In this document: positions 7,579 to 16,587 of the stretch, one piece after another
Numbering within the stretch: position 1 is the first letter of the stretch
How the letters are laid out: every line of letters begins with the position of its first letter
Origin: a virus
Length of the DNA: 16,785 bases
Reading direction: 5' to 3' (one strand)
UHGV virus genome: UHGV-0061980
Position numbers and translations under genes: made by a program
The notes under the pieces: generated by a model
What the model was told of the DNA's origin: nothing
The model's database searches: none
Seen by the model: only the letters and a program-made list of their open reading frames with translations

Positions 7579-8229
7579 ATGAAAACTCAATTGATGGGAG
7601 AGCGCATTCGCGCTCGGAGAAAAGAACTCAAGATCAGGCAGGCCGCACTTGGAAAGATGGTCGGCGTGTCTAATGTTGCCATATCTCAGTGGGAACGCTC
7701 TGAGACAGAGCCAAATGGAGAGAATCTTCTCGCCCTGGCTAATGCGTTGAAGTGTTCCCCTGACTATCTGATGAAAGGAGAGGAAAGTCTTTCAAACATT
7801 GCCTATCACAGTAGGCATGATCCAAGAGGGTCATACCCTCTGATTAGCTGGGTGAGCGCAGGATGCTGGATGGAAGCTGTAGAACCATATCATAAGCGTG
7901 CAATAGATAACTGGTACGATACAACCGTAGACTGTTCAGAAGATTCGTTTTGGTTGGACGTGAAGGGAGACTCAATGACGGCTCCGGCCGGTCTCAGTAT
8001 CCCTGAAGGAATGATAATACTCGTCGATCCTGAAGTAGAGCCGCGTAACGGGAAACTGGTAGTTGCAAAGCTCGAAGGAGAAAACGAGGCAACTTTCAAG
8101 AAGTTAGTTATTGATGCAGGCAGGAAGTTTCTAAAACCACTTAACCCACAATATCCGATGATCGAGATCAACGGAAACTGCAAAATCATCGGCGTAGTTG
8201 TCGATGCAAAACTAGCAAACCTTCCATAA
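7579..8229 (+). CDS. c2: Prophage repressor, P22 c2-type (LexA-like S24 peptidase C-terminal domain), 216 aa
   Basis: The translation is nearly identical to the P22 C2 repressor as recalled (QLMGERIRARRK.LKIRQAALGKMVGVSNVAISQWERSETEPNGENLLAL...). HTH N-terminal domain; autocleavage elements GDSM and the downstream Lys are present. Confidence 0.95.
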   Translation: MKTQLMGERIRARRKELKIRQAALGKMVGVSNVAISQWERSETEPNGENLLALANALKCSPDYLMKGEESLSNIAYHSRHDPRGSYPLISWVSAGCWMEAVEPYHKRAIDNWYDTTVDCSEDSFWLDVKGDSMTAPAGLSIPEGMIILVDPEVEPRNGKLVVAKLEGENEATFKKLVIDAGRKFLKPLNPQYPMIEINGNCKIIGVVVDAKLANLP

Positions 8230-8544: not shown

Positions 8545-8844
8545 ATGACAGTAGTCATTACATATCTGGCTGACGATAACGCCAGAAATCGCCGCAGAGC
8601 ACGCAGACAGGCTCAACGTGAACAGGCAATGCAAGAGCAGCGACTGGCGCGAAAAATTGCGCTAAAGCTCTCTGGTTGCGTCAGAGCAGATAAAGCAGCA
8701 TCACTCGGAAGCCTTCGCTGTAAGAAAGCAGAAGAAGTCGAGCATAAACAGAACCGTATTTACTACCGCAAGCCACGCAGTGAAATGGGTGTGACTTGTG
8801 TTGGTCGCCAGAAAATAAAATTAGGCAGCAAACCACTTATTTGA
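8545..8844 (+). CDS. N: Antitermination protein N (phage 21 / lambda-family type), 99 aa
   Basis: Arg-rich N-terminal motif (NARNRRRARRQAQREQ) and a C-terminus RIYYRKPRSEMGVTCVGRQKIKLGSKPLI that resembles lambda N (...GITCSGRQKIKGKSIPLI) and phage 21 N as recalled. GGAGG SD 5 nt upstream; downstream of pL/nutL. Confidence 0.85.
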   Translation: MTVVITYLADDNARNRRRARRQAQREQAMQEQRLARKIALKLSGCVRADKAASLGSLRCKKAEEVEHKQNRIYYRKPRSEMGVTCVGRQKIKLGSKPLI

Positions 8845-8855
8845 GAGGAATTAAT

Positions 8856-9479
8856 ATGTCATCAATCCGCTTAACTACGAGAATGAAAGAGGAAATCGCT
8901 CGTAACGCTTTAATTAAGTCTGGGGTTTTCACTGAACTTGAAGAAGTAACAAAGTTAAAGAACCAGCTTGCACTTGACGCCAGAGTTATTGCGTTTGGCG
9001 GTAAAAAGAAAACTGAGGAAGTGGATCAGTTATCATCCAAGTTGGTAGCTATAAGTGAAGAACTTGAAAAGATGGGATGTTCATTTTACTCATACGATGT
9101 TAGTTCTACTTCAATTTATCTGACTGTATCTGGCAGAAGGGTTGGATGGCATTCATATGGGAAAGACGGCAACGGCGAAGATATATTGCTCCCTACTCCG
9201 ACCAAAGATAAATGCATGTTTAGCGCAGAACACGAAATAACAAAAAGGTTTGATGAAATCTGCGCATTGCAACAAAAACTTGAAGCCAAGAAAAAGGATA
9301 TCGAATCAAATGTATGGGCTGCTTTGAACTCAGTCACAACAGTTAAGCGACTTATTGAAGTTTGGCCTGAAAGCAAAGAATTGCTACCAAAAGAAGCAGA
9401 TAAAGCAAGTACAGCACTTCCTGCTTTACGGGTAGAAGATTTGAATAAGATGATTGGACTTCCTTCCGAGGCCGCATAG
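8856..9479 (+). CDS. Hypothetical protein, 207 aa, first gene of a low-GC insert after N; function unknown
   Basis: ATG at 8856 preceded by GAGGAA; the start MSSIRLTTRMKEEI lies 20 codons inside the listed ORF, which otherwise overlaps N. About 38% G+C by manual count on the first 120 nt versus about 50% in N. No transmembrane-like hydrophobic stretch; no family recognised. Confidence 0.6.
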   Translation: MSSIRLTTRMKEEIARNALIKSGVFTELEEVTKLKNQLALDARVIAFGGKKKTEEVDQLSSKLVAISEELEKMGCSFYSYDVSSTSIYLTVSGRRVGWHSYGKDGNGEDILLPTPTKDKCMFSAEHEITKRFDEICALQQKLEAKKKDIESNVWAALNSVTTVKRLIEVWPESKELLPKEADKASTALPALRVEDLNKMIGLPSEAA

Positions 9480-13475: not shown

Positions 13476-14050
13476 GCGAAATTAATTACCAGGCACTGCG
13501 TGAGGCGGCGGAACGTGCAATTCCAGCAATGGAACGCCTGTTAATGTTGCCAGCTGATGATGATTTGATAAGTGAACAGGAACTTAAAGATTACGGTGTG
13601 GATATTGATGCGCTCAACGCCTTCAAATTTCTGGCCGGACCAGAAACCGTGCTGGCGCTGCTGGATGAACGGGAAAGAAACCAGCAATACATAAAACGCC
13701 GCGATCAGGAGAACGAGGAAATTGCGCTAACGGTAGGGAAGCTGCGTGTTGAGCTGGAAGCCGCAGAGAAGCGCATTGCAGAACTGGAAACACGGGAAAT
13801 AAAACCAGCCAAAGGTGAAGTTCTTGTCGTTGTTTCTGGTTTTACTGGTTGCGGAAAAAGCGCCATTGCCGGGGAAATAGAAATTGCGATGAAGGCTATT
13901 GGTGTACCGGTTCAGAGGACTAATGGCGATGCGGAAAAGCGCATGACAGGAGCTGACTGGCTGACAGCGATTGAGATGTACAAACCAACAGTGCGCATCG
14001 TGGAAGTTAATGTGCCACGCGCCGCTGGCATCAAGGAGGAGTCTGAGTGA
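13472..14050 (+). CDS. Ea22-like (Ead/Ea22 family) protein, 192 aa, with a C-terminal Walker-A-like motif
   Basis: [14 protein letters not shown]... and LALLDERERNQQYIKRRDQENEEIALTVGKLRVELE match lambda Ea22 as recalled. GGAGG SD before the GTG start. The C-terminus contains VLVVVSGFTGCGKS (G-x4-GKS). Confidence 0.7.
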   Translation: MSEINYQALREAAERAIPAMERLLMLPADDDLISEQELKDYGVDIDALNAFKFLAGPETVLALLDERERNQQYIKRRDQENEEIALTVGKLRVELEAAEKRIAELETREIKPAKGEVLVVVSGFTGCGKSAIAGEIEIAMKAIGVPVQRTNGDAEKRMTGADWLTAIEMYKPTVRIVEVNVPRAAGIKEESE

Positions 14051-14541
14051 TGGTCATTTCACCTATAACGCTGAAAGCGGCGCAGGAATTTATCGCACAG
14101 CACCACCGACACAATAAACCACCAGTGGGGCATAAATTCAGCATTGGTCTGAGAAATAATGCCGGAGAATTGATAGGTGTGGCGACAGCTGGTCGACCTG
14201 TTGCACGACATTTCGACGATGGATTAACGCTTGAAGTAAATCGCACATGTACCACAGGAGAACGCAACGCTAACAGCGCGCTTTATGGTGCTATCTGGCG
14301 GGCAGCAAAAGCTATGGGTTATCAACGTTGTATTACGTACACCCAGGCAGATGAATCAGGAGCATCTCTTCGCGCAGTTGGTTTTGTTCGTGTGAAAGAG
14401 CTTCCTCCAAGAAAAAGCTGGGCGGAATCAAGCGTCGCCCTGCGGAGTAAACGCGATCCGGTCGGAAACGGTGGTATTCCTCGTGTGCTCTGGGAAATCA
14501 GGAGAATGAGTACCACTGGCATTGGCATCAAAGGAGGGTGA
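14050..14541 (+). CDS. Conserved-looking hypothetical protein, about 163 aa (HHRH motif; possibly an acetyltransferase-like fold, unverified)
   Basis: ATG at 14050 overlaps the Ea22-like stop (TGATG); AGGAGG upstream. Fold assignment is a guess from motif spacing only. Confidence 0.5.
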   Translation: MVISPITLKAAQEFIAQHHRHNKPPVGHKFSIGLRNNAGELIGVATAGRPVARHFDDGLTLEVNRTCTTGERNANSALYGAIWRAAKAMGYQRCITYTQADESGASLRAVGFVRVKELPPRKSWAESSVALRSKRDPVGNGGIPRVLWEIRRMSTTGIGIKGG

Positions 14542-14542
14542 T

Positions 14543-14830
14543 ATGGCAACTTTGCAGGAATTAATCGACCTGACGCCAGAACAGGAAAAAGCGTGGAATC
14601 GCCTTGTGAAGGCTGTAAAGGATTTCAGGGCAGCCGGAGGAAAGTTTTATAGCGTCCTGGACACGCTGAGCGCATACAACGGCGAGCACGTTGCCAGCAT
14701 TGATAACGATAAGGGCTACCACACTGCAAGCGTTTATATGCCTAGCATTGATGCGCCAGGGCTAACCAGTTGGGCTGATGATTGGCACGGCATCACGCTG
14801 AAAGATGGCGTTGAAGTGGATGAGGACTAA
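14543..14830 (+). CDS. Hypothetical protein, 95 aa, with an acidic C-terminus
   Basis: GGAGG sits 5 nt upstream of the ATG at 14543; the listed ORF begins at an upstream TTG. Confidence 0.5.
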   Translation: MATLQELIDLTPEQEKAWNRLVKAVKDFRAAGGKFYSVLDTLSAYNGEHVASIDNDKGYHTASVYMPSIDAPGLTSWADDWHGITLKDGVEVDED

Positions 14831-15640: not shown

Positions 15641-15850
15641 ATGGCTATTGCCGCAAGTTACACCATGCATCTCTATTGTGATTGTCGCCAGTGTACGGAA
15701 GGTGTATATCCAGTGCCAGACTTCGGTGAGTATATCGGTACGTCATGGTCTGGTTGTGCAAAAGAGGCCCGTAAAGACGGGTGGCGAATAAGCAAAGACA
15801 AAACACGTACTTTTGCGCCCGGGCATAAAGTTTTGAGGATTAACACATGA
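15641..15850 (+). CDS. Small Cys-rich hypothetical protein, 69 aa
   Basis: The ATG at 15641 lies 1 nt after the upstream stop; its stop overlaps the next start (ATGA). Cys pattern C-x-C-x2-C...C suggests possible metal binding. Confidence 0.4.
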   Translation: MAIAASYTMHLYCDCRQCTEGVYPVPDFGEYIGTSWSGCAKEARKDGWRISKDKTRTFAPGHKVLRINT

Positions 15851-16579
15851 CCACTATTACCAAAGAACGTATTGAATTGTTCATTAAAAATCCGCTTGAA
15901 AACGGGCTTACTCGTGGCGAACAAATGGAACTAGCACGAATTGCACTGGCATCACTGGAACGCGAACAGATTCGCCACGAGCATGCCAAATGGTCTGACT
16001 CCACATTTGGCTGCGTTGGCCCCATTGGTCCACTGAAACACCTCTCAAAAGAGGCACTGGAAGCCGCAGCCGAACCAGACGATCTTAGCGAGTGGGCTGA
16101 TATGCAGTTTCTGTTGTGGGATGCACAGCGCCGTGCTGGCATCAGCGATGCTGAAATTACCGTTGCTATGGAAGATAAATTGAAGATCAACATGGAGCGC
16201 CAGTGGCCTGAGCCAAAAGATGGTGAGCCTCGCTTGCACATTAAAGAACCCGGCAACTCTCCGGTAATTCCGGATGGTTTATCCACGGTATGCGCTGAGG
16301 CTTATCAGGTTGTAGGAGTTATGGCAGATGCGCTTGGTGTATTCGGTGATGCAGCAGTACAGAAAGTTCTGGATAACCTGTCACAGCAAAAACTTGTTCA
16401 CAGAGATGTGCTGCCGTTCTCGCTTCCGGTAACTCCGGATGGTTGGGTTATGGTTCCTAAACAGGTAACGCCGGAAATCAGCAACGCGATAAACGTTGTG
16501 GGTCAACGCTGTACATGCGGAAATTGCTCTCAGCGGTTGTGGGATTTATTACTCGACGCCACACAGCAAGGAGTTAACC

Positions 16580-16587
<8 letters not shown>
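15847..16587 (+). CDS. MazG-like nucleotide pyrophosphohydrolase-domain protein (DUF550-like dATP/dGTP diphosphohydrolase type), 246 aa
   Basis: The central region HLSKEALEAAAEPDDLSEWADMQFLLWDAQRRAGISDAEITVAMEDKLKINMER fits the MazG-type E-x2-E ... E-x2-D signature. GAGGA SD upstream. Confidence 0.55.

Follow-up and report, generated by a model that had tools for sequence, protein, structure and literature searches.

A 163-residue protein encoded in the early-left operon of a lambdoid prophage is a member of XF1762, a sister family of shorter proteins to the phage Mu DNA-modification enzyme Mom

The open reading frame at 14050-14541 of viral genome UHGV-0061980, of which we analyzed a stretch of 16,785 nucleotides (the window), encodes a 163-aa protein that is almost certainly a member of the XF1762 family with a GNAT fold. 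Within the GNAT superfamily, this family stands beside Mom as a sister group of shorter proteins, and the protein is probably a nucleic-acid-modifying accessory enzyme. The reading we prefer is that it modifies DNA in the service of anti-restriction, to which we assign a probability of roughly 0.45. The relevant precedent is phage Mu, whose Mom enzyme chemically masks DNA against restriction enzymes. Mom is a GNAT that takes glycine from Gly-tRNA(Gly) and attaches it to the N6 position of adenine in dsDNA, giving a product that rearranges to N6-carbamoylmethyl-adenine, and it was recently shown to represent a new enzyme class, in which a GNAT uses charged tRNA for DNA hypermodification (PMC13219725). 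As a sister family that is much larger and whose members are shorter, XF1762 has gained in interest as a whole since that finding.

Family assignment and predicted fold

The first-pass annotation, made from the letters of the sequence, could not place the protein in a family. Public profile collections readily do so: the NCBIfam equivalog model NF045478, "XF1762 family protein", matches residues 3-136 over profile positions 2-130 of 143 with 202.6 bits against a cut-off of 50 (E 2.3e-60), and PHROG 1384, "Mom-like DNA modification protein", recognizes the 163-aa protein at E 1.7e-41 and Mu Mom at E 7.8e-84. The XF1762 family forms a short branch of PHROG 1384, exemplified by phi1026b gp66, ZF40 gp36 and Kapi1_007. 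In RefSeq, the label "XF1762 family protein" is already carried by E. coli genes at 95-99.6% nucleotide identity, and phage homologs such as phi1026b gp66 and ZF40 gp36 are labeled "Mom-like DNA modification protein". The assignment is therefore not a discovery, the sequence family being already named and already called Mom-like in public databases; our literature search found no paper naming XF1762 and nothing on a short Mom-like family.

The sole Pfam match of the protein is Mom (PF25680), at 22.9 bits (E 7.7e-5) where 27.1 bits are needed to pass the gathering threshold; of the 202 profile positions, the match takes in only 3-112. Several other members of the XF1762 family exceed that threshold (27.3-32.5 bits), such that the family straddles it. 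Among 150 family representatives, 64 match Pfam Mom at E ≤ 1e-4 and none matches another GNAT family.

The AlphaFold2 model of the protein (pLDDT 91.2, pTM 0.83) displays the GNAT order of elements, β1-α1..β2-β3-β4-α3-β5-α4-β6-β7. When the model was compared with the PDB by Foldseek, Mom (8bv8) gave the top query-normalized TM-score, 0.69-0.70, among the 50 matches listed. Within a viral structure library, Mom and the Mom-endonuclease fusions of jumbo phages come next after the protein's own family (E about 1e-8), and proteins named as generic GNAT acetyltransferases begin at about 5e-6. The jumbo-phage proteins have the Mom-type GNAT domain in common with the XF1762 protein, their structural matches lying at E 6e-9 to 4e-8. 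They measure 500-700 aa and carry a fused restriction-endonuclease-fold domain (Iyer et al. 2021, PMC7824862), whereas the XF1762 protein has neither a nuclease domain nor a nuclease neighbor.

Comparison with Mu Mom

By itself, sequence comparison ties the protein only weakly to Mom. A pairwise BLASTP with Mu Mom falls short of significance (E 0.3), even though EVNR is already paired with ELNR in its local alignment, and searches of PDB chains with the sequence and with the family profile retrieved neither Mom nor any GNAT. Recognition of the kinship needed profile-profile and structural comparison. A profile-profile comparison by hhalign of a 44-sequence alignment of the XF1762 family with a 22-sequence alignment of Mom gave E 5.2e-4 over 120 columns, at a probability of only 31%. 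The motifs that it aligns are listed with their coordinates in Table 1.

Table 1. Features of the window and of the XF1762-family gene. Residue numbers are those of the 163-aa protein unless marked Mom; fractions give conservation among the 44 aligned family members.
Feature	Position	Strand	Remarks
Lysis genes, Q, nin region, P, O, cII, cro		-	
Repressor gene	7579-8229		pL early-left operon runs on the + strand from here onward
pL early-left operon		+	kil, RecT, Gp157, ea-type accessory genes
Ea22-like gene, 192 aa	13472..14050	+	upstream; Pfam Ead_Ea22 E 8.3e-31, residues 2-104
Shine-Dalgarno AAGGAGG	14033..14039	+	strong; 10 nt before the ATG, within the last Ea22-like codons; read from sequence
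TGATG stop/start overlap	14048..14052	+	Ea22-like gene / XF1762 gene
XF1762-family (Mom-like GNAT) CDS, 163 aa	14050..14541	+	including stop codon
A11			43/44; aligned to Mom A50 by hhalign
HHRH (H18-H19-R20-H21)	14101..14112	+	H19 43/44, R20 44/44, H21 42/44
E62-V-N-R65	14233..14244	+	end of strand β4; aligned to Mom E108-L-N-R111
R72-N73-A-N-S76	14263..14277	+	start of helix α3; aligned to Mom R120-N121-S-E-S124
E102-S-G104-A-S-L-R-A-V-G-F112	14353..14385	+	β5-α4 loop and helix α4 (GNAT motif B region)
β6-β7 connector, residues 119-144	14404..14481	+	basic, low confidence; W124 43/44, R135 39/44
95-aa gene, PHROG 2821	14543..14830	+	downstream; start 1 nt past the XF1762 stop

In Mom, R111 and S124 are essential, as are D149 and R151, and the H58A substitution drastically reduces activity (PMC13219725). 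The residue opposite R111 is R65, which is invariant in the family (44/44), S124 corresponds to S76 (41/44), and H58 is aligned with H19 of the HHRH motif, in which R20 falls opposite Mom Y59, H58 and Y59 both being active-site residues of Mom. E62 (43/44) and N73 (41/44) are paired with the conserved Mom residues E108 and N121, respectively, and G104, invariant like E102 (both 44/44), is paired with the invariant Mom G156. At Mom A148-D149 hhalign opens a gap and sets R151 opposite Q99; an alternative drawn by eye, in which the S-to-D spacing of 25 is kept, pairs D149 with D101 and R151 with S103. We infer that E102 may take the role of Mom D149/E150. Judging from the alignment, E102 and R108, the latter a mostly basic position (R or K in 39/44), may together substitute for D149 and R151 within a shorter β5-α4 loop.

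There are also differences from Mom. In the alignment, equivalents of R151, Y159 and W48 are not conserved, the residues opposite them being Q99, L107 (Leu in 41/44) and K9 (variable: R, K or A); in Mom, W48 is a dimer-interface residue and Y159 lies in helix α4 (PMC13219725). The XF1762 protein has 163 residues against the 241 of Mu Mom, and its β6-β7 connector, modeled at pLDDT 63-68, spans 26 aa; its length is 21-31 aa in 43 of the 44 family members (38 aa in the other), compared with 42-46 aa in the 22 Mom proteins. It is at this place that Mom carries an HTH-like insertion (about residues 175-209 in Mu), which cannot be deleted without loss of activity (PMC13219725). In the XF1762 protein this insertion is missing, the remainder forming a basic loop with a conserved Trp. 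The basic character of the two families is the same: the protein has a pI of 10.5, and the family median of about 9.9 equals that of Mom.

Locus organization and expression signals

The phage closest to the window is Escherichia phage Kapi1 (Lederbergvirus), which covers 66% of it at 95.7% identity, and the window is a segment of a P22-like/lambdoid prophage. The frame at 14050-14541 on the plus strand translates without a stop to 163 aa (MVISPITLKAAQEFIAQHHRHNKPP...). Its start overlaps the stop of the preceding gene, as the first-pass annotation had read, with the TGA (14048-14050) and the ATG (14050-14052) sharing one base; initiation at an in-frame GTG at 14047 instead would lengthen the protein by one residue. 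The identification of that preceding gene as Ea22-like was likewise borne out by Pfam (Table 1). On the other side, the Shine-Dalgarno sequence of the 95-aa gene sits within the 3' end of the XF1762 gene. A scan for promoters and terminators returned nothing above shuffled expectation and no site at the XF1762 gene, whose start region is not more stably folded than shuffled versions of it (z = -0.70) and shows no Com-type structure. Base composition shows no anomaly, and no tRNA genes were found in the window. The XF1762 gene is one plain cistron of the early-left operon, with no dedicated promoter or terminator and no hairpin at its start. Co-expression with the Ea22-like gene from the same polycistronic pL transcript, which had been proposed from the overlap, is plausible in view of the stop/start packing.

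This arrangement differs from that of the Mu module. In Mu, the control of mom involves an upstream com gene, a hairpin that occludes the start of translation, and late transcription from a promoter that depends on C and Dam; this late expression is so elaborately controlled because mom is toxic. The XF1762 gene, in contrast, has no com-like upstream gene, start hairpin or late promoter, and lies in an early operon instead.

Distribution and genomic neighborhoods

Relatives of the protein are abundant. At E ≤ 1e-3 it matches 3775 clusters at 90% identity and 3248 clusters at 50% identity, 2127 of the latter at E ≤ 1e-10, and the family, with more than 3000 clusters at 50% identity, ranges over phages of Proteobacteria, Actinobacteria and Cyanobacteria. 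By megablast over at least 80% of the gene, copies were found in 144 of 5426 complete E. coli genomes (2.7%), with 131 placements on chromosomes and 20 on plasmids. Relatives occur in 32 of 50,697 phage records, the hosts of which include Escherichia, Pectobacterium, Burkholderia, Pseudomonas, Mycobacterium, Microbacterium, Streptomyces, Synechococcus and Pelagibacter. Given the thousands of matching clusters and the E. coli copies, the frame is a real gene and no chance ORF; conservation among relatives, on which the first-pass annotation had made its view of the gene depend, is that of a conserved accessory gene.

To survey neighboring genes, we used 80 viral contigs collected with a 10-sequence close alignment, mostly relatives at 65-99% identity. 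An Ea22-like gene lies upstream in 33 of the 80 loci, nearly all of them the closest enterobacterial relatives (≥88% identity), and the immediate flanking ORFs, which fall into 31 upstream and 35 downstream clusters, include no conserved partner gene. In most of these contigs the XF1762 gene overlaps the upstream gene by 1 nt or follows it by at most 8 nt, whatever that gene may be. The settings vary accordingly. In Kapi1 the gene stands behind a different, short Ead/Ea22 gene with an 8-nt gap; in UTI89 it belongs to a P2-like prophage, behind the replication gene and parM; another copy is carried by a 93-kb plasmid, where small accessory genes of phage type surround it; and in Pectobacterium phage ZF40 it lies between lysis and terminase genes. 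Other contigs carry it between a terS-like gene and terL, or ahead of SNF2 helicase, polymerase or primase genes, and a close relative of the window's prophage lacks it. The downstream 95-aa protein follows the XF1762 gene in only 1 of the 80 viral contigs and is no conserved partner. Neither this protein, nor Nmad5, nor the C-terminal module of the Ea22-like protein tracks with the XF1762 gene. Because the upstream gene differs among relatives, the Ea22 neighborhood denotes no functional partnership, and co-occurrence with Ea22-like genes scarcely extends beyond close kin; the adjacency is local and incidental, without functional meaning. The Ea22-like gene of the window has, as a separate observation, an unusual C-terminal module.

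In 15 of 81 loci, a DUF550 gene lies downstream at a distance of 0.3-1.4 kb. It was considered as a system partner and rejected: all 15 loci are close enterobacterial relatives, which we read as lambdoid mosaicism.

Links to DNA modification are seen repeatedly. Family members are recurrently fused or adjacent to DNA methyltransferases: fusions were found with a C5 DNA methylase and with a D12 N6-adenine methylase, the latter fusion protein on 6 contigs. Further fusions involve PAPS-reductase domains (twice), polyvalent-protein domains, a resolvase/recombinase, RepA_N and an ssDNA-binding domain. Moreover, in Burkholderia phage phi1026b the homolog and a DNA methyltransferase gene have 4 nt in common, and in one prophage Lar and a C5 methylase lie just upstream of the family gene.

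Candidate function

We lean towards a nucleic acid as the substrate of the XF1762 protein. In our preferred reading, DNA modification for anti-restriction, a small, very basic, stand-alone GNAT-fold transferase would act alone, as Mom does. It would be translated from the pL transcript at prophage induction or phage infection, probably coupled to the upstream gene, and would bind nucleic acid by way of its basic β6-β7 loop and numerous conserved arginines. An activated donor would then give up an acyl or aminoacyl group to a base, in all likelihood at an exocyclic amine in DNA, and phage DNA modified in this manner would be shielded against host restriction. Since the protein lacks the CoA pyrophosphate motif, the donor would probably be an aminoacyl-tRNA, as for Mom, rather than acetyl-CoA. 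Several observations speak against DNA modification for anti-restriction. The insertion that is essential in Mom is missing, and R151 and Y159 are unconserved in the alignment. The activity of Mom is toxic and regulated in Mu, whereas the XF1762 gene is early and free of such control. Our literature search found no report of modified DNA for phages that carry the gene, such as Kapi1.

The first alternative is that the protein is an ordinary acetyl-CoA-dependent GNAT acetyltransferase engaged in host takeover or counter-defense. Its target would be a small molecule or a protein, for example a host defense or translation factor in the manner of RimI or the Naa enzymes. We regard this as unlikely. 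The canonical acetyl-CoA pyrophosphate loop, Q/RxxGxG/A (motif A, between β4 and α3), occurs in only 1 of the 44 family members; in the 163-aa protein the loop reads T-G-E-R-N-A-N-S, and Mu Mom, with HDDMPRNSES at that loop, is likewise without motif A. The position aligned with the usual α4 tyrosine is Leu. Neither the protein nor the 150 representatives matched any Pfam acetyltransferase family, Mom being the only match, and a nucleic acid is what the high pI, the arginines that never vary and the fusions to DNA methylases point to. The first-pass annotation had pointed to GxSLRAVGF as a possible acetyl-CoA-binding-like motif. Both this stretch (residues 104-112, nt 14359-14385) and the HHRH near the N-terminus (residues 18-21) are present as described, and the guess was right in so far as the fold is that of a GNAT. 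However, in the AlphaFold2 model GxSLRAVGF forms helix α4 and the start of strand β6, and together with the motif count this secondary structure rules it out as a CoA-binding motif.

A second alternative would keep the nucleic acid and change its kind. As an RNA-directed GNAT, the protein would slow or reprogram host translation early after induction, by acylating either the aminoacyl group of charged tRNA (as TacT/AtaT do) or a base of tRNA or rRNA (as TmcA does). FemX has a tandem GNAT architecture and the TacT/AtaT toxins are paired with antitoxin partners, whereas the XF1762 protein is a single domain with no conserved partner. These enzymes have the GNAT fold in common with it and, by analogy through Mom, possibly the use of the CCA end of charged tRNA, to which Mom binds (PMC13219725); no sequence-family match between them and the XF1762 protein was found. 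A relative of Mom without the HTH-like insertion could conceivably retain only the tRNA-binding half, the protein is basic, and the early operon also holds the host-directed gene kil. Against these points stand the lack of a conserved antitoxin-like partner, with neighbors that vary among phages, and the absence of TacT/AtaT-type GNATs among the best structural matches listed. The fusions and adjacencies of the family, moreover, are with DNA enzymes (methylases, resolvase, RepA_N, ssDNA-binding protein) and with no translation factors. We consider an RNA target quite improbable.

The region past the replication gene in P2-like phages is a hotspot for defense cargo, and it is in this variable region that UTI89 carries its copy. 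That the gene serves lysogenic conversion or defense, keeping out superinfecting phages by modifying host DNA, incoming DNA or some other target, nevertheless seems very unlikely: jumbo-phage Mom-endonuclease fusions have been interpreted as restriction-modification-like units (PMC7824862), but there is no endonuclease partner in the window or in most contexts, PADLOC-DB holds no model at E ≤ 0.01 for the 163-aa, Ea22-like, downstream 95-aa or Nmad5 proteins, and the XF1762 gene, being part of the pL-side operon that follows the repressor gene, would by analogy with lambda be expected to be repressed in the lysogen.

Returning to DNA modification, a more specific and decidedly tentative proposal is that the XF1762 family represents a minimal Mom, i.e. 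a stand-alone DNA-base acyl or aminoacyl transferase of about 150 residues that dispenses with the HTH-like insertion. Its donor might be charged tRNA or another activated acyl donor, and the base, sequence context and amino acid might differ from those of Mu. Were this so, common temperate phages such as Kapi1 would contain a widespread and so far undetected DNA hypermodification. If the protein is a DNA modifier, it would reveal the minimal catalytic core for Mom-type chemistry, show whether the HTH-like insertion matters only for the choice of target in Mu, and give the ea region of lambdoid phages, which is poorly understood, an anti-restriction role; if it is not, it would mark where the Mom lineage branches from ordinary acyltransferases. 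Experimental access is easy, given the E. coli prophages and the cultivable phage Kapi1.

Annotation of the present copy

For the frame at 14050-14541, the annotation "XF1762 family / Mom-like GNAT" (function predicted) is appropriate in place of "hypothetical". The copy in the window is an ordinary full-length member of the family, 98.8% identical to Kapi1_007, and nothing of substance distinguishes it. Its C-terminal tail of 12 residues, RMSTTGIGIKGG, is encoded by mosaic boundary sequence.

Modular insertion of the XF1762-family gene

The prophage of E. coli T309.Ta3 is among the closest whole-window matches, covering 69% of the window at 97.7% identity. It lacks the gene for the XF1762-family protein, a Mom-like GNAT, and the PHROG 2821 gene comes immediately after its two Ea22-like genes. 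The absence of the XF1762 gene from so near a match means that it behaves as an insertable cassette.

The ends of the Ea22-like and XF1762 genes feature a near-identical sequence (see table), which in each case serves as the Shine-Dalgarno source for the following gene. The corresponding peptide end, ...GI(K/R)(I/V)(K/E)GE, is common to unrelated upstream proteins of other phages. This element looks like a conserved boundary where lambdoid modules swap; it also accounts for the 12-residue C-terminal tail of the window's XF1762 protein. At the other end of the gene, megablast alignments to most E. coli XF1762 copies begin only at gene nucleotide 31 or 49, and alternative N-termini are found among these copies, e.g. 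MQISPVTLRVAKAFISRHHRHN. The alignment starts thus place a mosaic breakpoint within the first 10-16 codons.

Coordinates of features in the window and in compared loci (L-numbers; positions within each locus)
Feature	Location	Strand	Match or context
Nmad5 gene ('nucleotide modification associated domain 5')	window 8796-9479	+	Pfam PF18757, E 1.6e-71
Extra C-terminal module of Ea22-like protein, ~80 aa	window 13805-14047	+	Walker-A-like GFTGCGKS
TGGCATCAA(A)GGAGG, Ea22-like gene end	window 14026-14039	+	
TGGCATCAA(A)GGAGG, XF1762 gene end	window 14523-14537	+	
N-terminal part of XF1762 gene	window 14050-14098		
DUF550 gene (246-aa protein)	window 15847-16587	+	PF04447/DUF550 'dATP/dGTP pyrophosphohydrolase' domain, E 8.2e-42
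Region without XF1762 gene, E. coli T309.Ta3	L002 15576-17017		Prophage
XF1762 gene, E. coli UTI89	L091 3471-3962		P2-like prophage
XF1762 gene, plasmid pKY1497_2	L092 3454-3945		93-kb plasmid
gp66 region, phi1026b	L093 3995-5739		Burkholderia phage

Carriage by other mobile elements

Two further kinds of mobile element carry the same XF1762 gene at 96% nucleotide identity. In UTI89 it is placed after genes for a replication endonuclease, ParM and a ClpX-type zinc-finger protein, and in pKY1497_2 it is surrounded by DUF968, DUF551, ASCH and Pol III theta genes. In phi1026b, the XF1762-family gene is gp66, which runs 4 nt into the start of the gene for a 433-aa DNA methyltransferase; a ParB-like gene and replication genes come next. 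The original GenBank note on gp66 records similarity to NP_299051, presumably Xylella XF1762. Two cluster representatives of the family, P0300 and P0301, show an apparent frameshift midway through the GNAT domain. Both are probably pseudogenes or products of faulty assembly, and they were excluded from the alignment used for modelling.

Accessory genes of the pL operon

The DUF550 gene lies 1.3 kb 3' of the XF1762 gene, and its presence beside Nmad5 and the Mom-like GNAT gives the operon three nucleotide-related accessory genes. Of 81 related loci, 15 have a DUF550 gene downstream of the XF1762 gene at a distance of 0.3-1.4 kb, and all 15 are close enterobacterial relatives. Nmad5, whose true initiation codon probably lies 3' of the listed TTG, shares the pL operon with the XF1762 gene and is also present in the closest phage, Kapi1. 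Its occurrence is not tied to that of the XF1762 gene: the two were seen together in 4 of the 81 loci, although the 5-kb flanks of these loci barely extend to the Nmad5 distance. We read the grouping of these three genes as mosaic co-location rather than a demonstrated system. Elsewhere, missense mutations in nmad5 allow Dhillonvirus phages to escape the Tmn defence system (PMC11846954).

The C-terminal module of the Ea22-like protein matches PHROG 11761, and its matches to APS kinase and AAA_16 are weak and sub-threshold; at its length it falls short of a complete P-loop NTPase domain. This module and the XF1762 gene are found together in only one of the related loci (L004).
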